Of a stretch of DNA of 64,000 nucleotides, positions 18,007 to 64,000 are shown piece after piece. A program made the translations under genes and the position numbers. The notes beneath the pieces are model-generated. The model did not search any database. It was not told where the DNA came from and saw nothing but the letters and a program-made list of their open reading frames with translations. The DNA is from a virus. The stretch lies in IMG/VR virus record IMGVR_UViG_3300042879_004946, positions 44,458-108,457 of that record. The stretch is one strand, 5' to 3'. Each line of letters starts with the position of its first letter. The stretch's first letter is position 1.

Positions 18007-18602
18007 TGAGAAAATATAAAAATATTAGATTGAGAAAATCACCAATAGTAGAAGAAAGGGTGAAATTAATCAATAGAATTATTAAAGAAACTATTAATGA
18101 AAGTTTTGAATCTGTGATTAATACCGATTATGAGTTAATAGAAGAAAATTCAAATATTTTAATATATAGATTTAAAACAAATAGTGGTTATAGTTACGAT
18201 TTAGAATTTATTACAGATTTTATTGAGAATGATAAAAAATTTTATAATGGAAAAATTTTAAAAGACTATATCGATTCCGATTATATTGAACCTACCATAG
18301 ACATCGCTTTTGTGCCTTCTGAGGTTAACATGGAAGATAGAGATTCACCTGAATTATATACAAAAGAAACGAATAGGTATGAAACTATTGAATTAATGGG
18401 TAGAATATCTTTTTTAATAGAAGAGTTTATAAAAAACAATCCAAGAATAAAAGTTTATATTATTGGTAAAAATACCAAAGAAATTAAATTAAGTATTTAT
18501 TTAAAAATATTTGATAATATATTTTCTGATAACTTTTATAAAACAGAAGGTCGTAGTTTAGGTTATCCCAGCGGTGCTTTTTATTTTATAAAAAAACAAT
18601 AA
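18006..18602 (+). CDS. Hypothetical protein
   Basis: Long ORF with an IIKETINE motif near the N-terminus. Confidence 0.6.
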   Translation: MRKYKNIRLRKSPIVEERVKLINRIIKETINESFESVINTDYELIEENSNILIYRFKTNSGYSYDLEFITDFIENDKKFYNGKILKDYIDSDYIEPTIDIAFVPSEVNMEDRDSPELYTKETNRYETIELMGRISFLIEEFIKNNPRIKVYIIGKNTKEIKLSIYLKIFDNIFSDNFYKTEGRSLGYPSGAFYFIKKQ

Positions 18603-18628
18603 CAATAAAAACAAATATTAAAAACTTA

Positions 18629-19294
18629 ATGACAATAGGTGTTTCAGTTAACGGCGTACTCCGTGATTACTTTGGCAAAATAGAAAAAACACACACGAAA
18701 TATTTCAATCCTGAAGATGGGCAAGAAATAAAAATTAAAGATTATGATTTGGAAAAATGGATAAAATTTCCTGAAGAAGAAATTGTAAGACAAGAAATTG
18801 AATTTAATCCTGATTTTAATTTAAAAGATTTTGTGCAAACAGATTCTAGTTTTAAAATCGAAGAAGTTAAAGATGATCCAATAACGGTTGATGATTTTAT
18901 CTACGATAAATGTTGTTTGGAAATTTTTGGTTATGCAGAAGAAGAAATGGATGGTATTGTACAAGCTCTAAATGATTTTGATCTTCATTTAAAAATGTTA
19001 AAGAAAGATTATGAAGTAGTAATCACCAGTAGAGAGGCAGGTCGAAGTGTACCCGCAACTCTTTTCTTTTTATCAAAAACAGGTTGTATGATACAAAACG
19101 TTAAATTCACAATGGGAACCACTGATTGTTGGGATTTTGTTGATATTATGATTACAGATCATCCTGAAATTTTATCAACTAAACCAGAAAATAAAATTAC
19201 AATTAAAGTCGAAAAACCGTTTAACTCCCATATAGATTCTGATTACACTGTTAGAAGTATTAAAGAACTTACTGGTTTGGGGGTTTTTAATTAA
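18629..19294 (+). CDS. HAD/5'-nucleotidase-like protein with degenerate catalytic motif
   Basis: IGVSVNGVLRD (cf. DxDGVL), ITSR, MITDHP, PFN. Confidence 0.6.
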   Translation: MTIGVSVNGVLRDYFGKIEKTHTKYFNPEDGQEIKIKDYDLEKWIKFPEEEIVRQEIEFNPDFNLKDFVQTDSSFKIEEVKDDPITVDDFIYDKCCLEIFGYAEEEMDGIVQALNDFDLHLKMLKKDYEVVITSREAGRSVPATLFFLSKTGCMIQNVKFTMGTTDCWDFVDIMITDHPEILSTKPENKITIKVEKPFNSHIDSDYTVRSIKELTGLGVFN

Positions 19295-19330
19295 CGTTTA
19301 CTTATAAAAAAACTTATATAATTTTAAAAT

Positions 19331-19711
19331 ATGAATAAATTTAAAAAAAATGATAATCCAGAAATGTTTGCCATCGCTGGTAGTCAATACTATTTCGACT
19401 TGGACGAATTAAGTCGTTATATCAGGGTTGAAAAAACTGAAAGTGTTGAAGATATTCTTAATGAAGCGAAAAAAGAAATGACTGGAGACCCTGAAAACGC
19501 CGAAGAAGATGCTGAGATCTTAGGTCAAATAGTAGATGTCACCAAATGGGAAACCATTAAAGTTATGTTTGAATGTGTTTTAAGCGACCAAGGGCCAATA
19601 GATGAGGCTATGGGTATAGCGAGCCTTTCAAATCAATTATCAATACCTTTTAAATTATCATTTAATACATTACTAAAAAATAATATAATAAAACAACAAT
19701 ATGGAAAATAA
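19331..19711 (+). CDS. Hypothetical protein
   Basis: ORF coupled to the next gene. Confidence 0.6.
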   Translation: MNKFKKNDNPEMFAIAGSQYYFDLDELSRYIRVEKTESVEDILNEAKKEMTGDPENAEEDAEILGQIVDVTKWETIKVMFECVLSDQGPIDEAMGIASLSNQLSIPFKLSFNTLLKNNIIKQQYGK

Positions 19712-20780
19712 CACAAAAGAACTAATCAAAAACGCGATTCAAAATCTAGAAAAAAAAGATTTTAGAATTTTTTTCTTTGTTATGGATACAAAGGGAAATG
19801 CTGTTGCCAGTTTGGCAAATATCTATGAACATGCCAGAATTTTACGTCAATTAGGTTATGATGCACAAATTCTACATGAAAAAAATGATTATCCAGCCAT
19901 TGGGCCAATTTTAGGTGAAATTTACGCTGAAATACCACATGTATCTGCTGAGGGGCAACAATTAAAAGTAAATACACAAGATTTTATTGTGATACCAGAG
20001 ATTTTTGCAAACGTTATGGAACAAACAGCAAAATTACCGAGCAAAAGAATCGTTTTTGTTAACTCATATGATTATATTTTTGAAATGTTAATGCCTGGTA
20101 AGAATTGGGTAGAATACGGTATCACCGATGTCATCACTACAAATGAAAAACAAAAAGAATATATTACCGATTTATTTTCTAACAGAATTAACGTTGAAGT
20201 AGTACCTGTTAGTATACCTGAATATTTTAAACCTTCTGAAAAACCTAAAAAACCGATTATTGCGATTGCGACTCGTGATCAAAGAGATTTGGTGAAAATA
20301 TATAAAAGATTTTATCTTAAATATCCACATTTAAAATGGGTTTCATTCCGTGATATGCGTGGATTACCAAGAGAGGTTTTTGCGAATTCATTAGCTGAAT
20401 GTTGTTTGGCAATATGGGTTGACGATATCGCTGGGTTTGGTACTTTTCCGGTGGAAGCAATGAAATGTGACGTTCCAGTTTTAGGTCTTGTACCTAACAT
20501 GTTACCAGAATGGATTTCAGATAAAAATGGCCTTTGGACACATGAGACCAACAAAATTAGTGATTTAGCTGCCAATTATTTTCAAGCCTGGTTGGAGGAC
20601 GCTGAACCTGAAGAAATTTACACTGAAATGGCTAAGATGAAAGATTCTTACACTTTGGAACAACAAACACTTAAAGTACAGGAAGTTTATAACAAAATTT
20701 TTGAAAAAAGAATTGAAGAATTAAAATCAGTGATCCCTGTTGAAATAGAAGTTGAAAATAATGTAGAAATTGAAAAATAA
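19701..20780 (+). CDS. GT-B fold (GT4-like) glycosyltransferase
   Basis: VIPE and AGFGTFPVEAMKCDVPV (cf. ExFGxxxxEAM). Confidence 0.75.
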   Translation: MENNTKELIKNAIQNLEKKDFRIFFFVMDTKGNAVASLANIYEHARILRQLGYDAQILHEKNDYPAIGPILGEIYAEIPHVSAEGQQLKVNTQDFIVIPEIFANVMEQTAKLPSKRIVFVNSYDYIFEMLMPGKNWVEYGITDVITTNEKQKEYITDLFSNRINVEVVPVSIPEYFKPSEKPKKPIIAIATRDQRDLVKIYKRFYLKYPHLKWVSFRDMRGLPREVFANSLAECCLAIWVDDIAGFGTFPVEAMKCDVPVLGLVPNMLPEWISDKNGLWTHETNKISDLAANYFQAWLEDAEPEEIYTEMAKMKDSYTLEQQTLKVQEVYNKIFEKRIEELKSVIPVEIEVENNVEIEK

Positions 20781-57449: not shown

Positions 57450-58047
57450 TATCTTTTGATTCTAATAATGTCAAACTAAAAGAATTACCATGTATTTTTG
57501 CTGCTTTTTTACATATTGACATAAAAGCATCAAAATCCATAACTCTTTTAAAAACTAAACAACCTGCTGACCAATTTTCCACCCAGGTAGAATCACGGCC
57601 AGCTTTATGTATATTAATACCGTATAAGCCTTCAGTTATCTTGTTTTCATCATATTCTAGATCAAAATCATCATCACGATAAACTTTAACATTTCTTTGT
57701 TGGCGAAGGGCTTCGTATCTGCCTTGATGTAATCCTATTGTGTGTGAACCTCGGTATTGTCCAGGTATTAATCTAGCACAACCACCAGTTATACCCATTT
57801 TTTGCCATTCTAACATACTTTTTTTACCTGGGTCTGTTGTTGCTGACCAAATATGGAATTTCCAAATACCATTTTCTTTATAAGAAATGGTTAACCAATC
57901 ATCAAATACATTAGTGACATTTTTACCTGTTGAGGAATTTCTAATACCTATGATATTAACATCGTAACCTTTGTTTTCCGCATCTTCAAACCAAACGTAA
58001 CCTTTTGATTTTACGGTCTTTTCGATTTGCTCTCTTGTATAACTCAT
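57427..58047 (-). CDS. Putative cell-wall enzyme with a YkuD/L,D-transpeptidase-like motif
   Basis: GINIHKAG..NWSAGCLV (H..SxGC). Confidence 0.55.
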   Translation of the reverse strand: MSYTREQIEKTVKSKGYVWFEDAENKGYDVNIIGIRNSSTGKNVTNVFDDWLTISYKENGIWKFHIWSATTDPGKKSMLEWQKMGITGGCARLIPGQYRGSHTIGLHQGRYEALRQQRNVKVYRDDDFDLEYDENKITEGLYGINIHKAGRDSTWVENWSAGCLVFKRVMDFDAFMSICKKAAKIHGNSFSLTLLESKDIISLDRL

Positions 58048-58194
58048 GACATTTATTTTAATAAATAAATATCATGAATTTTACCTTTTAAAAGATTATA
58101 TGTCTAGTAATCGATAAATTGAGTATCCCCATTAGGTGACATCACAATATAACCACCTTTCACTCCATTTATTATAGTAATTTCCCACATAATT

Positions 58195-58338
58195 TTATTT
58201 TTTTATTGAAATATATAAACCATTATACCATCCGAAAATTTCAGTATCAAATTCTCGGTTTTTTTTAAAATCTTTAAAATCAATTTCGATTTCTATAAAA
58301 AAAGATTCATTTGGGAACCTTGCTAATATTTTTTTCAT
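58195..58338 (-). CDS. Hypothetical protein, 47 aa
   Basis: MKKILARFPNESFFIEIEIDF..; fills the intergenic gap on the coding strand. Confidence 0.4.
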   Translation of the reverse strand: MKKILARFPNESFFIEIEIDFKDFKKNREFDTEIFGWYNGLYISIKK

Positions 58339-58364
58339 ATAAATTAATTAATTTTAGTTTATAT

Positions 58365-58940
58365 TTATAACTTTACTTTTTCAATTATATTTTTTACTTG
58401 TTGTAAATTAAACTCACAGTCTCTTTTGTATCTTTGTAATCTATCAATTATATAGTATTGTTCATGTTTATCATCTATTAGATTTTCATCGGTAGTTGGG
58501 TACCCGCTATGTAATGTCCAATAATCTTTATGAATATAAATTGGGTTTAATTTACTTTGTGGTGGTCTTATTAACATAATTGTACCACCATCCCTAATAG
58601 TTGATATATTGTATATTGACCATAGGACACCACCTTCTTTAACATACTCTTTAATATAACCTTCTTTTTCAAAAATATCAACTTCTGGGAATATAAGTTT
58701 AGCTGAATTATTTGGTGTAAAGTTTACCCTATCGTATCCTGATGTTATAATTTCGAAATCAACTTCCAAACCTTCTTTAAGTACGTTATATTTAATTTCA
58801 CCATCTTTAATGTACTTGATTGAATTACTATCATTAGATAGTTCTGTATAAGACCAATGCCATCCGTGACCGAATGAATGTAAATCGGACCATTTTACCA
58901 TCCAAATGCCTTGTTCGTCCCTTGTTAATATTCCTTTCAT
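58365..58940 (-). CDS. Hypothetical protein
   Basis: 191-aa ORF. Confidence 0.6.
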   Translation of the reverse strand: MKGILTRDEQGIWMVKWSDLHSFGHGWHWSYTELSNDSNSIKYIKDGEIKYNVLKEGLEVDFEIITSGYDRVNFTPNNSAKLIFPEVDIFEKEGYIKEYVKEGGVLWSIYNISTIRDGGTIMLIRPPQSKLNPIYIHKDYWTLHSGYPTTDENLIDDKHEQYYIIDRLQRYKRDCEFNLQQVKNIIEKVKL

Positions 58941-58963
58941 AACTTAATTTTTTATTATATAAC

Positions 58964-59836
58964 TTATATCGCTAACTCTAATTTTGAATTTAATTTAGTG
59001 ATGCCTTCCGTTCCAACAATTTCAAAATCATCAATAATGTAATGATAAAAATTCTTATTTTCTTTTAAGATTAATTTTGGTTGAATATCCAATGGTGTTT
59101 TATTTAATAACTCGGAAACCGCATCAAAATGTCTGTCGTAAATGTGAAGATTCTGAACCAAATGACAAAATTTACCAACCTTGTAATTGCAATGTTGAGC
59201 AACCATCATTAAAAGAGCCAGATATTGTACCTTATTAATGTAACCGGCAACTAAATAATCTGATGAGCGTTGAATTAATGTCATATCAAGAATTAATCCG
59301 TCGCCGCTCTTTCTTACCGAAAACATAACTTCATAAGCACAAGGATGGAGCCCTTTTGTTTCCTCCAGATCTGAATACTGGTACATATTAATAATGTGTC
59401 TACGACTAAATGGATCTTTTAATAAACCACTCAATAATTTATCCATCAATTGGTATTTAGCGATCGTTCTTCCGTATCTTTGGCCAATTGTACCATCACC
59501 AATGTCCCATTCGTCCCACCAATTAATTCCCATTTTATGGGCAACATCAAGTGATGATGATTGTTCTTGGTATATCCAAAATACTTCACTTATTCCCGTC
59601 TTAATTGCGGTGTTTCTTATAGTTGGAATAGGAAATTCCCCTTTTGATATATCATATTCTTCAAACACTTGTGTTATAAATCTAGAATAAGCTGGTGTTC
59701 CGTCAGGGTATTTTGGCCTTGGATTTTCATCCCAAGAACCTTCTGACATAATTTTTTGAATATTTTGGATATAGTATTTATCAGCTTTATTAAACATCTT
59801 ATGTGTTTTTATAAGTCCATGAATAGGGTGCTCCAC
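58964..59836 (-). CDS. thyA: Thymidylate synthase
   Basis: SRRHI, LHPC, QRSSD, IN..QY, HIYDRH. Confidence 0.92.
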   Translation of the reverse strand: MEHPIHGLIKTHKMFNKADKYYIQNIQKIMSEGSWDENPRPKYPDGTPAYSRFITQVFEEYDISKGEFPIPTIRNTAIKTGISEVFWIYQEQSSSLDVAHKMGINWWDEWDIGDGTIGQRYGRTIAKYQLMDKLLSGLLKDPFSRRHIINMYQYSDLEETKGLHPCAYEVMFSVRKSGDGLILDMTLIQRSSDYLVAGYINKVQYLALLMMVAQHCNYKVGKFCHLVQNLHIYDRHFDAVSELLNKTPLDIQPKLILKENKNFYHYIIDDFEIVGTEGITKLNSKLELAI

Positions 59837-59837
59837 C

Positions 59838-60140
59838 TTAATATGGTGTACTTGTGGTGTTTGTTTTTATTTTACCGCTATTTCTATCAACAAGTTTATT
59901 TCCGATAACACAACCACAAATTCCACTTCCACCATTTTTAGGGTTACAACCACAAATTTCAAAATAAGGAACTTTATCATCAACAGGTTTATTGGTTGGT
60001 TGATTTGGCACAAAAAAGGGTGGTGTTGATTCTGATGCGTATAAATCGATTAGTCTATACACCTCTACTTTAAATTGTGAAATGGTTTCACTCCTTTCAA
60101 ACTCAACTTCAATTAATTTTTTTAAGGTTTCTATATTCAT
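59838..60140 (-). CDS. Hypothetical protein with Cys motif
   Basis: ICGCNPKNGGSGICGC. Confidence 0.6.
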   Translation of the reverse strand: MNIETLKKLIEVEFERSETISQFKVEVYRLIDLYASESTPPFFVPNQPTNKPVDDKVPYFEICGCNPKNGGSGICGCVIGNKLVDRNSGKIKTNTTSTPY

Positions 60141-60176
60141 TTTTCTTTTGTTAATGTGTACACCGAATTTTTAGTT

Positions 60177-60638
60177 TTAATGTGTGTTGTTTATTAAACT
60201 AATGCCATGCTTGATACCGAAAATAAATTCTGAAATTTCGTGGTCTTTTATATTTTCTATAGATTTACCTATAGCAATACCGATTTCATTTCCAATATCG
60301 GAGATATCACCATTATTATATTTAACAATCATAAGCATTTGACTAATACTTTTTAATGTTTTTTGAAAATCGAGTTCTCTATCAGAATGTTCGTAAGCTC
60401 CATCAGGGCCTATTTGAAAATCATCACTAATATATGGAGGTTCTTCTTCCAATCCATCCATTAAAGTAACATCCCAGTGTCCCAATTCTTCTTCATACTC
60501 ATCAAGAGATCTAAGACCGTTATGAGGTGGTGGAAGTTCCATATTAGAAAATTTCCATTCAGACCATTCTTCAAAAGTAAATGTGGATTCTGGATTTTCT
60601 TTAAGATAGTTTTGATATTGTGTTTGTAGAGTACTCAT
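60177..60638 (-). CDS. Hypothetical protein
   Basis: ORF with promoter motif at 60654-60662. Confidence 0.6.
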   Translation of the reverse strand: MSTLQTQYQNYLKENPESTFTFEEWSEWKFSNMELPPPHNGLRSLDEYEEELGHWDVTLMDGLEEEPPYISDDFQIGPDGAYEHSDRELDFQKTLKSISQMLMIVKYNNGDISDIGNEIGIAIGKSIENIKDHEISEFIFGIKHGISLINNTH

Positions 60639-60687
60639 AATTATTTTCTATGCTATAAATATACGAATAAAAATTTAGTAAGCCAAA

Positions 60688-61488
60688 TTAAATGGGTAAA
60701 TTAACTTTGTTTAAGAGTTGATTTGAAACATGTGTGTAAATTTCTGTTGTTTTCACATTAGAGTGTCCTAATATTTTCTGAATTATTTTTAAATCAGTAC
60801 CATTCTCTAAAAGATTTGTTGCACAACTATGTCTCAACTGGTGGATGTGATATTTCTCACCTAAATATTTTTTAACAATTTTATTACAACTCCCTGAACT
60901 ATATTTTAAACTATTCTGACCGTTGAATAGGTACTCTTTAGGTTTATATTTTATAAAATATTCTCTAAGTAATTCCAAAATTTTTTGTGATAGAGGAACC
61001 ACTCTGTCTTTTCTACCTTTGGCGTTTTTAATATGGATAATCATTCTTTTGGAATCGATATCTTCAATTTTAAGGTTAATTACTTCAGACACTCTTAATC
61101 CAACTGAATAGGTTAAAGATAATATTGATTTGTGTTTAATATTTTCAATTTTAGATAATTGTTCTTTAATATATTCTCCATCAATAACCTGTGGTAATTT
61201 CTTCTCTGATTTGGGTCTCTTAAATGAGACTTTATCGTATTTCTTATTAAGTCCGAATTTGTAGAGGAAACGGATTGCATTTATTACTTGATTTTGTTGA
61301 GAAACTGAGGTGAATTGATAATTATCTAAATAAGATTGGAAATCATTAGATGTTAATCTTGTTGGTGGTATTGAAGCACCCTCCAAAAATTGATTTATGT
61401 AAAAAAGGTAGGATTTTATTGATCTATCCGAGTAGTTTAAGTACTTCAATTTTTGATTACAAATTTTGTAATAATCTGTTTTTTTCAT
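60688..61488 (-). CDS. Tyrosine recombinase; candidate integron-like integrase
   Basis: SAM-like N-terminal domain (YSDRSIKSY), GLRVSE, KGRKDR, HQLRH, LGH, TTEIY; abuts the cassette array. Confidence 0.9.
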   Translation of the reverse strand: MKKTDYYKICNQKLKYLNYSDRSIKSYLFYINQFLEGASIPPTRLTSNDFQSYLDNYQFTSVSQQNQVINAIRFLYKFGLNKKYDKVSFKRPKSEKKLPQVIDGEYIKEQLSKIENIKHKSILSLTYSVGLRVSEVINLKIEDIDSKRMIIHIKNAKGRKDRVVPLSQKILELLREYFIKYKPKEYLFNGQNSLKYSSGSCNKIVKKYLGEKYHIHQLRHSCATNLLENGTDLKIIQKILGHSNVKTTEIYTHVSNQLLNKVNLPI

Positions 61489-61546
61489 TACTAAAACATT
61501 GGTTTTAAAGGGTTTTTAGCCACTTGTTGATATATGATAGTTATAG
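61489..61546 (+). other. attI-like primary recombination site
   Basis: GTTATAG at 61540-61546, 51 bp upstream of the integrase ATG. It is complementary to the left core of the first attC and has no hairpin arm of its own. Confidence 0.65.
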
Positions 61547-61879
61547 TGAATTTTGTTTCTTCCACTTATCTAATTCTTCTCGTGTTGGTGCCGAATATAT
61601 ATCTTCGTGTATATTATTGTAGTTTTTTAATTTACCAACATAAATACCCTTATCACCAGCATACATTATACCAACTTCATCTTCTGATAATTCTTTACCT
61701 AAATAATAGTGGAATGTTGGTAAATTAAAACCAACTTTCTTTAATTTTTTAGCAGATTTCTTATCAACTACATCACCAACAAAACTCACTATAACATCAG
61801 ATATATTCAATTTTTTCTTTGAATTTTCTGTAAGGAAGTTCCTAAAGTTGTCAATGTGTTCTCTCATTTCTTTGCTCAT
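61541..61879 (-). CDS. Cassette 1 ORF (starts in the attC1 loop)
   Basis: MSKEMREHID..LTE..NISDV; the stop TAA is the TTA of the 61540 core. Confidence 0.8.
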   Translation of the reverse strand: MSKEMREHIDNFRNFLTENSKKKLNISDVIVSFVGDVVDKKSAKKLKKVGFNLPTFHYYLGKELSEDEVGIMYAGDKGIYVGKLKNYNNIHEDIYSAPTREELDKWKKQNSL

Positions 61880-61945
61880 AATTTTATTTTATATATAAAT
61901 ATTGAAAATTCAGAAAAAACTAAATATATCTGAGTATCGTTAGTG
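61789..61945 (+). other. attC-like site 1
   Basis: CTATAAC-A-TCAGATATATT..AATATATCTGA-GTATC-GTTAGTG. Confidence 0.75.
61894..61902 (-). promoter_or_regulatory. ATATTTATA motif inside the attC1 loop
   Basis: 14 bp upstream of ATG 61879. Confidence 0.6.
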
Positions 61946-61951
61946 ATAATT

Positions 61952-62173
61952 TTATTTTGAATATTTGTGTTTGAACCATTTTTCAAATTCTTCTAACAAT
62001 TCTTCTTCATTATAAGGTTGATTACTAATACTTGTGAAAGCATAGTGTGAAAATGCTTCAAACAAGTCTTTTTTAGTAAAACTATCACTAACATCAGATA
62101 TATTCAAGTTTTCTGATTCAGTTAGTTTAAACTTGTTAAATTTGTCTATGTGTTGTCTCATTTCTTTGCTCAT
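61952..62173 (-). CDS. Cassette 2 ORF (starts in the attC2 loop)
   Basis: MSKEMRQHID..LTE..NISDV. Confidence 0.8.
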   Translation of the reverse strand: MSKEMRQHIDKFNKFKLTESENLNISDVSDSFTKKDLFEAFSHYAFTSISNQPYNEEELLEEFEKWFKHKYSK

Positions 62174-62230
62174 AATTTTGTTTTATATATAAATATCAGA
62201 AAACCTAAATATATCTGAGAAACGTTAGGT
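62086..62230 (+). other. attC-like site 2
   Basis: CACTAAC-A-TCAGATATATT..AATATATCTGA-GAAAC-GTTAGGT. Confidence 0.75.
62188..62196 (-). promoter_or_regulatory. ATATTTATA motif inside the attC2 loop
   Basis: 14 bp upstream of ATG 62173. Confidence 0.6.
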
Positions 62231-62271
62231 GCAATAAAAAATAAATTTCCCACCGCACCCTACCATCAACA

Positions 62272-62583
62272 TTAGTCCTCAAATTCAAAATATTCATCCT
62301 GTGCTGGAATAATCTTTCCATAAATAGGTTCTGACTTATTCCATTTACCATCAACACAACTGTAAATGATTTTCACAGCCCTTTCATCGTGATAAGGCGG
62401 CAATCCTCCAGTTCTTGAAAATTGTGAAGTTTGAGTGTAAATCATTTCGATTGTTTCTCCTACCTCATTTACCTCTTTGAATACCATTGGATTCCATAAT
62501 CCACCGTGTGCCGTTGTTCCGCTTGCAATCGTTGATGTCATTGCACCTGAAGCTGTGTTTGTTTTAATGTTTAATGTTTCCAT
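62272..62583 (-). CDS. Cassette 3 ORF, hypothetical
   Basis: Single ORF between cores 62224 and 62634. Confidence 0.75.
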   Translation of the reverse strand: METLNIKTNTASGAMTSTIASGTTAHGGLWNPMVFKEVNEVGETIEMIYTQTSQFSRTGGLPPYHDERAVKIIYSCVDGKWNKSEPIYGKIIPAQDEYFEFED

Positions 62584-62633
62584 TTTCGTGTTATTTAAAA
62601 TTTAAGCCCACGCTAAATTTATTTTTTACAGAC

Positions 62634-62731
62634 ACCTAACAGCAGGTAGGCAAAATGCCGCTATGAGCCTGAGTGCTTTGATTTAAAATTTGTGGTAAGC
62701 GGCACTATCGCCTACCTGCAAAACGTTAGGC
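62634..62731 (+). other. attC-like site 3 (98 bp)
   Basis: ACCTAAC-A-GCAGGTAGGC..TGCCGCT..AGCGGCA..GCCTACCTGC-AAAAC-GTTAGGC; canonical RYYYAAC/GTTRRRY. Confidence 0.85.
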
Positions 62732-62736
62732 ACAAT

Positions 62737-62985
62737 TTATGAAATGGTAATAGGTTTTACTATAACCGTTGCGCCATAACTTGCAAAATCAGTTGCACTA
62801 TATGTACCATCTTTTCGTTCTCTAAGTTCTGTATCTTTATGAAAGAACCTTGTTTTGATATAATTAGTTGCAACTGATTTTGCTTCATCTAAATCAAACT
62901 TATAACCTAATTCTTCAAACACCATTTCATCTGAGTCTCTGGTCGTGTCTGCCAAATTTCGCTCTGTGTAAATTCTATATGCCAT
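62737..62985 (-). CDS. Cassette 4 ORF, hypothetical
   Basis: Fills the cassette almost exactly. Confidence 0.75.
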   Translation of the reverse strand: MAYRIYTERNLADTTRDSDEMVFEELGYKFDLDEAKSVATNYIKTRFFHKDTELRERKDGTYSATDFASYGATVIVKPITIS

Positions 62986-62995
62986 AATAAACTGT

Positions 62996-63119
62996 GCCTA
63001 ACAAAGTGTATAAGCAATAGCCGTTAGGCATTTTAAACTATTGCAGTTGTTAATATTTAATTTTCTACTTCTAATTAAGTTTTGTGTTCGGCTACTGCTC
63101 ATACACTCAACCGTTATGT
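62996..63119 (+). other. attC-like site 4 (124 bp)
   Basis: GCCTAAC-AA-AGTGTATAAGCAATAGCCG..CGGCTACTGCTCATACACT-CAACC-GTTATGT. Confidence 0.85.
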
Positions 63120-63134
63120 TTAATTTTAAAAATT

Positions 63135-63503
63135 TTATGATTGTTTTATACAAAACTTATCATTTAATTCTTTTGACCATTCTTGTAACGAACCCATATT
63201 GCTATCAACCCTTACCCAATCACCATAAGTTTTGTGTTCCCAATAAATAGAACCATCATATTTTTCATTGTATAAAAACTTACTTTCATTGTCTTGTTTT
63301 TCATTCCAAGTTTCACCATCATTTATCATAAAAGTAATTTTCTCACCTTGTTTAAGTTTTGAAATAATATCTTTTATAGAATATCCTTCTCTGTTAATTG
63401 CTAAATTAACTTTATTTACATTATTGTAATCAAAATCATATTCAAAACTTAAACCACTATCAAGTAAGTTTTTTATTTCTATTTCTGCTTTTTTTGTTTC
63501 CAT
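63135..63503 (-). CDS. Cassette 5 ORF, hypothetical (122 aa)
   Basis: ATG 63503 (METKK) is preferred; the longer call runs through attC5. Confidence 0.7.
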   Translation of the reverse strand: METKKAEIEIKNLLDSGLSFEYDFDYNNVNKVNLAINREGYSIKDIISKLKQGEKITFMINDGETWNEKQDNESKFLYNEKYDGSIYWEHKTYGDWVRVDSNMGSLQEWSKELNDKFCIKQS

Positions 63504-63542
63504 ATATTTATTTTTTATTTGTATAAAATTTTTAAAACTAAA

Positions 63543-63596
63543 ACATAACAACAAATAAAACACATTAAAACGATGTTTTATTTGCAACCGTTATGT
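63543..63596 (+). other. attC-like site 5 (54 bp)
   Basis: ACATAAC-AA-CAAATAAAACA..TGTTTTATTTG-CAACC-GTTATGT. Confidence 0.8.
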
Positions 63597-63830
63597 GTAA
63601 TGATTTATAACAATATCACAAAGAATTTTAGAAGTAGTCTTTATATCTTCCACTTGTTTATTTATAAATTCATCTTTAGTAATTATACCTTTCATCAATT
63701 CTTTATGAATTAACGTTATATAAAAATTGTGTCTAATTAATTCCTTTTCGAAATCACTACACATAACATCAGATATATGTAATTTTTTATCTGTGTTATC
63801 AACTTCTGTGTTATTATTTACTTCTTCCAT
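63591..63830 (-). CDS. Cassette 6 ORF (starts in the attC6 loop)
   Basis: ..KKLHISDVM..; the stop TAA is the TTA of core 63590. Confidence 0.75.
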   Translation of the reverse strand: MEEVNNNTEVDNTDKKLHISDVMCSDFEKELIRHNFYITLIHKELMKGIITKDEFINKQVEDIKTTSKILCDIVINHYT

Positions 63831-63890
63831 ATTATTTAAGTTTTATGTTTCAATTTAAGAAAAAACTACATATATCTGTGACCGTTATAT
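63761..63890 (+). other. attC-like site 6
   Basis: ACATAAC-AT-CAGATATATGTA..TACATATATCTG-TGACC-GTTATAT. Confidence 0.75.
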
Positions 63891-64000
63891 GCAATTTTCA
63901 GTTTGTTTTGAATTATTTAATAAATCTGCATCGCACCCAATAAATAATATCACCATTTGGTTCGTGTTGTGTATATAAAGATAGAAAATAACATTTGGTA

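Follow-up and report, generated by a model that had tools for sequence, protein, structure and literature searches.

Does a phage genome carry a gene-cassette platform that works like an integron, yet is built around an enzyme that is not an integron integrase? Integrons are regarded as bacterial, and recently also archaeal, devices defined by the integrase IntI with its special domain. The question is raised by positions 60,688 to 64,000 of the window, by which we mean the whole stretch of 64,000 nucleotides analysed here. The window is the final 64 kb of the 108,457-bp IMG/VR virus contig IMGVR_UViG_3300042879_004946, and the end of the window is the end of the contig. A preliminary description of this DNA had proposed a cassette-shuffling platform consisting of a tyrosine recombinase and an array of one-gene units, each with an imperfect hairpin. 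Comparison with relatives makes a phage-encoded gene-cassette platform that works like an integron, in a site-specific manner, by far the best reading of the locus, and we give it a probability of just under 0.8.

The array begins beside the recombinase gene, which occupies 60688–61488 on the minus strand and encodes a 266-aa Xer/XerA-like tyrosine recombinase according to comparison with Pfam, NCBIfam and the PDB. The open reading frame (ORF) is intact, and 51 nt separate its start codon from the first GTTA of the array at 61540, the start of a GTTATAG core, just as the preliminary description had it. Comparison of relatives identifies 61489–61543 on the plus strand as an attI-like insertion site, made up of a conserved ...GATATATGATA and then an invariant GTTA (61540–61543). 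At least six one-gene units had been proposed to follow; six are complete and a seventh is truncated by the contig end. All six ORFs and the 3' end of the seventh lie on the minus strand. They thus point toward the recombinase, as previously claimed, and across the family the longest ORF has this orientation in 110 of 113 cassettes.

Cassette 1 (61541–61939; all window cassettes are on the minus strand) holds an ORF of 112 aa (61541–61879) that stops at the TAA of the core. Its hairpin stretches from the TAAC at 61792 to the GTTA that ends at 61942, has the left core (R'') TCACTATAAC at 61786–61795, encloses the cassette's own start codon and about 30 N-terminal codons, and folds as DNA with a z score of –3.9. 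The 73-aa ORF of cassette 2 (61940–62224; ORF 61952–62173) likewise starts inside the hairpin (62089–62227; R'' TATCACTAAC), which scores 22.6 bits with the covariance model described below. Cassette 3 (62225–62725) combines a 103-aa ORF (62272–62583) with a hairpin at 62637–62728 (R'' CACCTAAC; 46.7 bits; fold z –2.5), and cassette 4 (62726–63113) an 82-aa ORF (62737–62985) with a hairpin at 62999–63116 (R'' TGTGCCTAAC; 50.7 bits). The hairpin of cassette 5 (63114–63590; ORF 63135–63506, 123 aa from ATG) spans 48 nt (63546–63593; R'' AAACATAAC; 52.1 bits; fold z –3.7). In cassette 6 (63591–63884) the 79-aa ORF (63591–63830) again starts inside the hairpin (63764–63887; R'' TACACATAAC; 32.6 bits). 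Cassette 7 (63885–64000), cut by the contig end, retains the 3' end of its ORF, whose stop is the TAA of the core GTTATATGCA, with the core GTTA at 63884.

The window sites share a common form: TAAC, 1–2 unpaired nt, a stem, a loop, a stem, 5 unpaired nt and GTTA. Measured from TAAC to GTTA they are 48–151 nt long, which with 3 nt on each side gives the 54–157 bp reported earlier. A hairpin detector run over the 64 kb picked out all six, together with an overlapping false positive within the array and, in the remaining sequence, two weak candidates. By script, the GTTA cores at 61540, 61939, 62224, 62725, 63113 and 63590 pair exactly with the TAAC cores at 61792, 62089, 62637, 62999, 63546 and 63764, respectively, so that the left core of each site complements the start of its own unit, as the preliminary description had noticed. 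Beyond these six pairs the complementarity continues for a further 6, 6, 4, 6, 5 and 6 nt, in order. The chance probability of four 6-nt extensions, one of 5 nt and one of 4 nt in the right order is about 1e-20.

The same anatomy recurs in relatives. Scanning viral contigs with the recombinase yielded 53 loci (given L-numbers, as are some further loci below), many of them on contigs of 100–465 kb, with recombinase identities of 29–91%. Arrays are present in 40 of the 53. Among the 13 loci without a site, 11 have less than 1.3 kb of upstream sequence; the others are L017, which contains a hairpin 88% identical to that of cassette 4 of the window despite having no detector site, and L054, whose recombinase is only 29% identical. 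In these relatives 200 detector sites share strand and side with the window array, and 3 are on the other strand. The core-complement rule (GTTA-N6/N6-TAAC, N6 being six variable nucleotides) holds for 109 of 160 neighbouring sites (68%), compared with 5–9% in the controls, in which the core was matched to the site's own closing core (9 of 200), to the next site (8 of 160) or to the site before the previous one (12 of 127). Complementarity outside the cores peaks sharply at exactly 6 extra nucleotides. This implies that each unit carries 10-bp inverted ends, GTTA-N6...N6-TAAC, in which N6 differs per unit. In integrons, where crossover occurs in G/TT, each R'' matches the R' at its own start; the same match is found here, with the position resolved to within GTTA. 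We rejected a transposon-like reading of the inverted ends, since the six variable nucleotides differ for every unit. An invertible-segment, shufflon-like reading was also discarded, because the genes share one orientation in 110 of 113 cases and what distinguishes relatives is the insertion or loss of entire units, not their inversion.

The structure of the site is conserved as well. In an alignment of 43 diverse sites (A1) the four core pairs are invariant and 11 of the 13 L-stem pairs change on both sides, that is, they covary. Stem cells pair in 89% of cases, compared with 25–51% when the partner column is slid, and at two L-stem positions an A usually faces a C. Among the conserved unpaired or flanking bases are an A that always follows TAAC, a spacer resembling CAACC ahead of GTTA, K (G or T) behind GTTA and an A present at +7 in every site; the stem has a conserved TATA. 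The attC sites of integrons are imperfect hairpins of variable length with RYYYAAC/GTTRRRY cores, whose structure is conserved more than their sequence; the sites here, with AAC/GTT cores, covarying stems, an asymmetric spacer and lengths of 48–210 nt, are candidate counterparts. A covariance model built on this alignment (R1) recovers five of the six window sites from the 108-kb contig and nothing else at E < 0.1. A weak match at window position 19706–19785 on the minus strand (20.4 bits, E 0.3), inside a 359-aa ORF, is probably due to chance. The model is strand-specific, giving 86 bits on one strand of a site and 31 on the other. In five near-complete genomes (281–465 kb), its sites occur only in one stretch beside the recombinase, which reaches 10–16 kb in two of them. 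L016 has, in addition, a second run of six hairpins of this type on the same strand (18244–20579), about 8 kb beyond the recombinase on its other side, which resembles an integrase-distal cluster. An Rfam search over 60000–64000 with E up to 10 gave chance-level matches only and no attC family.

These features bear on the form in which the sites would be used. The same platform and enzyme could treat them as duplex DNA, with the recombinase binding CAACC-GTTA-K and the palindromic arms serving termination or regulation. Such use would suit an enzyme that looks like a standard Xer protein and lacks the IntI domain that contacts extrahelical bases. It would also suit the sequence conservation of spacer, core and flank (CAACC, GTTA, the invariant A at +7), and the hairpins are intergenic, where terminators and promoters are expected. 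However, the arms vary yet stay paired, with the covariation of 11 of 13 pairs just described, and they lie 48–150 nt apart, unlike in any duplex core site. The outer 6 nt are complementary only across the cassette, which is sensible only if they pair in an excised circle. We consider duplex use improbable. Three observations lead us to favour a gene-cassette platform whose enzyme would act on folded single strands: the stems covary, the sites are strand-specific, and the outer 6 nt could pair only in the circle.

The insertion site differs from the cassette sites. In almost every relative a motif TATATAATA-GTTA stands about 52 nt away from the start of the integrase gene. With the attC-like sites attI has only the GTTA in common. 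Past this GTTA the sequence differs even among near-identical phages. Over 10,853 nt, as far as the A of the attI GTTA, L004 matches L005 at 99.84% identity, and past that point the two are unrelated; L007 and L010 are 100% identical over 2,651 nt with the same end point. L008 equals L010 plus one 797-bp cassette at attI with the matching ends TGTACATAAC/GTTATGTACA. Five loci with an almost identical attI left arm lead into four different first cassettes. As with the attI of integrons, which lies beside the integrase and is the entry point of new cassettes, the site thus combines a conserved motif, a point of divergence and the insertion seen in L008 relative to L010.

Whole cassettes are also exchanged at the cores farther into the array. 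L014, L015 and L019 have backbones that are 97–99.6% identical, and the cassettes they have in common are 99.6–100% identical but differ in order. A 956-bp cassette is first in L014 and L015 and eighth in L019, which has two other cassettes at attI, and a run of five cassettes in L014 and L019 is missing from L015. The comparison of cassette order and content among relatives that the preliminary description had called for therefore finds both variable, here as in L008 and L010. Movement reaches distant phages too. Cassette 5 (63114–63590) recurs in L030, whose recombinase is 66% identical to that of the window, with 1 mismatch in 477 nt; the identity runs from CAACC-GTTA to the next GTTAT and the flanks are unrelated. 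It is also found, 97.6% identical, in a third array context in the metagenome contigs L076 and L077. These exchanges between cores, together with the split of near-identical relatives at the attI GTTA, uphold the idea of a cassette-shuffling platform. Among the 113 cassettes only 9 pairs from different loci resemble each other along most of the sequence, which indicates a very diverse cassette pool. At its start (positions 1–114) the L014 contig is identical to the attI-proximal end of its own first cassette, adjoining the block that is next to that cassette in L019; a mixed population with two array orders in one sample probably broke the assembly at this point.

A fossil array, captured long ago, for example from a bacterial integron, and since then only inherited vertically beside a recombinase that no longer acts on it, is hard to reconcile with 99.8–100% identical backbones that have different first cassettes, or with a cassette that differs by one nucleotide in 477 between phages with 66% identical recombinases. 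No such site array lies beside the sampled bacterial homologues, and the recombinase is full-length and without internal stop in most relatives. On the other side, the window array is seen in one arrangement, this genome gives no direct sign of current activity, and phages are known to contain fragments of integrons and attC clusters that lack an integrase (PMC9892861). We regard this history as most unlikely. In L042, L045, L047 and L051 the recombinase is matched in part (residues 1–170 or 74–266) or as two pieces; in these loci the gene may be disrupted while the array remains.

The breakpoints bear equally on an explanation by homologous recombination, in which the hairpins would be promoter/stem-loop modules like the PeSLs of T4-type phages and the recombinase, as an integrase for lysogeny or a resolvase of dimers, would have nothing to do with the array. 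Shuffling through PeSLs has been described (PMC2839356, PMC4122927), and similar recombinases of cultured flavobacterial phages have been read as signs of lysogeny (PMC8776804). The hairpins here do contain promoter-like motifs, and hairpins of some classes differ so little from one cassette to another that exchange by homology could take place between them. PeSL breakpoints are expected anywhere within the shared repeats and require no dedicated recombinase; here they fall at one fixed tetranucleotide, GTTA, and a recombinase is always adjacent, with the array starting about 52 nt from its gene. Cassettes enter attI even though GTTA is all that it shares with their sites, neighbouring hairpins are often unrelated in sequence and length, and homologous exchange leaves the unit-specific 10-bp inverted ends unexplained. 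This explanation is very unlikely.

To which gene does each hairpin belong? The core-swap pattern is symmetric and would allow the gene to the left or to the right. L008 reads attI-GTTA-TGTACA...TGTACATAAC-hairpin-CAACC-GTTA-TGCTCC... and L010 reads attI-GTTA-TGCTCC..., which means that the inserted 797-bp unit consists of a gene body and the hairpin at the 5' end of that gene. The block borders in L014 and L019 agree with a hairpin travelling with the gene whose 5' end adjoins it. In the direction of the gene, the layout of a cassette is hairpin, gene and TAA/C; the stop codon is the core TAA in 25 of the 113 cassettes, and the ORF starts inside the hairpin in 44. Integron cassettes, by contrast, are mostly promoterless, have attC downstream of the gene and rely on the common promoter Pc, whereas here 110 of 113 genes are inverted and the hairpin lies 5' of the gene.

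Two recurrent promoter-like motifs, AATATTTATATATAAA and TTGAAACAC..AAACTT, stand 10–30 nt upstream of cassette start codons. Such motifs occur in hairpin loops across the related loci and, in the window, at 61880–61915 and 62174–62205 on the minus strand. They may be promoters of two classes that lie within the recombination sites. In cassette 1 the hairpin (61790–61942) contains a putative promoter, the start codon and roughly 30 codons of leader, and it matches positions 2457–2608 of L046 at 98.7% identity. The match is confined to the hairpin region, and the same leader thus seems to be joined to different coding bodies.

The recombinase adjoining the array was examined for membership in the integron integrase family. 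Pfam assigns it Phage_integrase (2e-39) and SAM_4, a SAM-like N-terminal domain, and its motifs RVSE, KGRKDR, HQLRHS, GHS and IYTHV match the catalytic set. In the NCBIfam ranking XerA_Arch comes first with 195 bits (cut-off 220), and XerD and XerC reach 155 (cut-off 330) and 152 (cut-off 335). All of these curated Xer cut-offs are missed, and the protein is Xer-like in length and fold class without being an equivalog. The integron integrase family TIGR02249 scores 158 bits in two stretches (cut-off 265) and PRK15417 (IntI) 99.9 (cut-off 435). Pyrococcus XerA (PDB 4a8e) aligns end to end without large gaps (1.8e-40). With Vibrio cholerae IntI4 (2a3v), residues 18–179 and 214–257 align, and the 34 residues between them (180–213) stand opposite 82 residues of IntI4 (183–264), so that about 48 IntI residues are skipped; positions 180–259 of the TIGR02249 profile are likewise unmatched. 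The additional IntI-specific domain (around patch III), which serves as a criterion in IntegronFinder according to PMC9668308, is therefore absent, and the scores fall below both IntI cut-offs. By sequence the enzyme is Xer/XerA-like and outside the IntI family. This agrees with the preliminary description, which had called it a non-IntI integrase. Its detail that KDRVVPL passes directly into YLF needs correction, as 22 residues lie between the two, but the IntI insertion is indeed missing. The family is abundant in metagenomes, where it is mostly labelled XerD, and the exact sequence is present on 14 contigs.

We propose the following mechanism. The recombinase would insert circular one-gene cassettes at a fixed attI (...TATATAATA followed directly by GTTA), 52 nt upstream of its own gene, and would excise and reshuffle them through recombination between cassette sites. 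Each cassette would contribute one attC-like site, read as a folded hairpin. Its R stem of 10 bp (N6-TAAC paired with GTTA-N6) would be complete only in the excised circle. The R stem would be followed by an asymmetric unpaired spacer, 1–2 nt in one arm and 5–6 nt, usually CAACC, in the other, and by an L stem of 11–13 bp with the conserved TATA, A.C mismatches and a loop whose length varies between 11 and about 150 nt. Crossover would fall inside the invariant GTTA. The hairpin stands upstream of its own gene and in many cassettes holds promoter-like motifs, the start codon and sometimes an N-terminal leader, and every cassette therefore looks like a unit that provides for its own expression in the direction of the recombinase gene. 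We regard the adjacent recombinase as the probable catalyst, since it is invariably linked to the insertion site and lies at a fixed distance from it. XerCD recombines the folded single-stranded attP of the CTX phage, which provides a precedent for an Xer-type enzyme acting on a hairpin. The fuller proposal is of a second, phage-borne lineage of integron-type systems, in which folded single-stranded hairpins would be recombined by a minimal Xer-like enzyme that has no IntI domain, and the site would double as a promoter/start/leader module, moving genes and joining leaders to new bodies. We hold this at even odds.

Several points weigh against an integron-like platform. The enzyme lacks the IntI-specific domain, which is treated as defining for integron integrases and which integron recombination is reported to need (Messier and Roy 2001, cited by PMC9668308). 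The folding energies of the single sites are modest, with z scores of –1.8 to –3.9 for single-strand DNA folds of the window sites, and the minimum-energy fold of site 6 differs from the long hairpin, although its 12-bp stem is present. The test of covariation and pairing is partly circular, as the aligned sites were picked by a detector that requires stems; the core rule is independent of this. The insertion in L008 relative to L010 depends on the 118 nt of the second cassette (100% identity) that the L008 contig still contains. The crossover can be assigned to GTTA, but sequence data cannot place the exact cleavage position within it. The case is one of sequence comparison, from which cassette circles and recombination by this enzyme are inferred.

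The claim that this is phage DNA is supported by the major head protein and large terminase encoded within the window, which also encodes an HNH endonuclease. That the phage is a jumbo phage, as the preliminary description held, can soundly be inferred from the 33% completeness that CheckV gives for the 108-kb contig and from near-complete relatives with the same recombinase, which measure 281–465 kb, one of them with terminal repeats. The 281-kb contig of L003 (94% complete) has the IMG/VR label 'provirus', which is odd for a giant lytic-type phage. A megablast search of 58000–64000 against 50,697 phage records gave no match.

The cargo of the arrays comprises 105 distinct proteins of 46–355 aa with a median of about 85. 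Eight have a Pfam match with E up to 0.001, and the five strong matches are to DNA methylase, RNA ligase and its OB-fold domain, YopX and DUF7448; comparison with PHROGs yields, in addition, a nucleotide phosphatase and a few families without names. Pfam assigns no family to the six window cassette proteins, and a search of the ESM Atlas with the cassette 5 protein returned nothing above chance level.

Farther afield, cultured flavobacterial phages encode recombinases 38–42% identical to that of the window, which have been taken as a sign of lysogeny (PMC8776804). The genomes of the Polaribacter phages Freya_6 and Freya_10 are 99.9% identical up to ...AAC/ACCCC beside the recombinase gene and differ upstream of the gene. 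Freya_10, Freya_1 and Freya_6 (L059, L071 and L072) infect one host and have genomes of 43,978–48,920 bp that differ by small genes upstream of the recombinase. The covariance model has no match in Freya_10, where the hairpins are of another type, GTTGG...CCAAC. In a one-genome-per-species collection no bacterial homologue exceeds 53% identity, and the model finds no site near eight bacterial and archaeal homologue loci (30–53% identity). A full-text literature search, with most subscription journals outside its reach, returned no description of such a phage cassette system. Qi et al. 2023, using IntegronFinder and bacterial IntI1, described integron fragments and integrase-less attC clusters in 21 phages and reported no phage-native recombinase with attI and long arrays (PMC9892861).

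The locus would place the logic of an integron in large lytic-type phages, with a plain Xer-like enzyme and reversed cassettes that carry their own putative expression signals. If the second lineage of integron-type systems proposed above exists, recombination of cassettes through hairpins would not generally need the IntI domain, and many of the Bacteroidota phage 'integrases' that are at present taken for lysogeny markers (PMC8776804) would be cassette recombinases. Should the enzyme act on hairpins, it would offer a second, simpler model for structure-specific recombination and would explain how giant Bacteroidota phages gain and exchange small accessory genes, possibly for host takeover or anti-defence, across distant lineages. 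The proposal is testable at the bench, as there are cultured distant relatives with variable arrays, the Polaribacter phage Freya isolates.

Among known systems, XerCD acting on CTX attP and archaeal XerA acting on dif resemble the one described here in using a short Xer-type tyrosine recombinase and, in the case of CTX, a single-stranded DNA hairpin with an unpaired centre as substrate. Their task, by contrast, is the integration of an entire phage genome or the resolution of chromosome dimers at a single dif site, and they have no cassette arrays. The PeSLs of T4-type phages, the closest concept from phages, also concern small accessory genes in variable regions of large myoviruses, flanked by promoter and stem-loop and shuffled (PMC2839356, PMC4122927). 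Their shuffling proceeds by homology, in contrast to the dedicated recombinase, fixed crossover tetranucleotide and unit-specific inverted ends found here. Integrase-less attC clusters of phages (CALINs) share with our arrays the presence of attC-like sites and cassettes in phage genomes, including those of marine Bacteroidota phages, and DNA methylase as cargo. Unlike our arrays, however, they are 17 CALINs of at least two predicted bacterial-type attC sites, or fragments of bacterial integrons, and were tested with IntI1 (Qi et al. 2023, PMC9892861).

The closest comparison is with integrons, in particular sedentary chromosomal ones. Both consist of a recombinase gene, an adjoining fixed insertion site and then a one-directional array of single genes, with recombinase, attI and hairpin in the same relative polarity. 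The units here have imperfect hairpins that look attC-like, with AAC/GTT cores, an unpaired spacer, a mismatched second stem and a variable loop, and neighbours have exchanged their outer core bases in the way that a G/TT crossover would produce. As in integrons, new units enter beside the recombinase, and the cargo consists mostly of small unknown proteins plus a DNA methylase. The phage enzyme, unlike IntI, has no IntI-specific domain and does not reach the IntI cut-offs. The R stem measures 10 bp (TAAC plus 6) instead of 7, and the spacer has 1–2 nt in one arm opposite 5–6 nt in the other. The genes are inverted, with the hairpin upstream and containing promoter-like motifs and often the start codon, and the recombinase gene is co-oriented with the cassettes and downstream of them. 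The host of the array is a lytic-type giant phage and not a bacterium. Judged by its sequence, the system works like an integron, yet it departs from integrons in two features that define membership, the IntI domain and the polarity of the cassettes.

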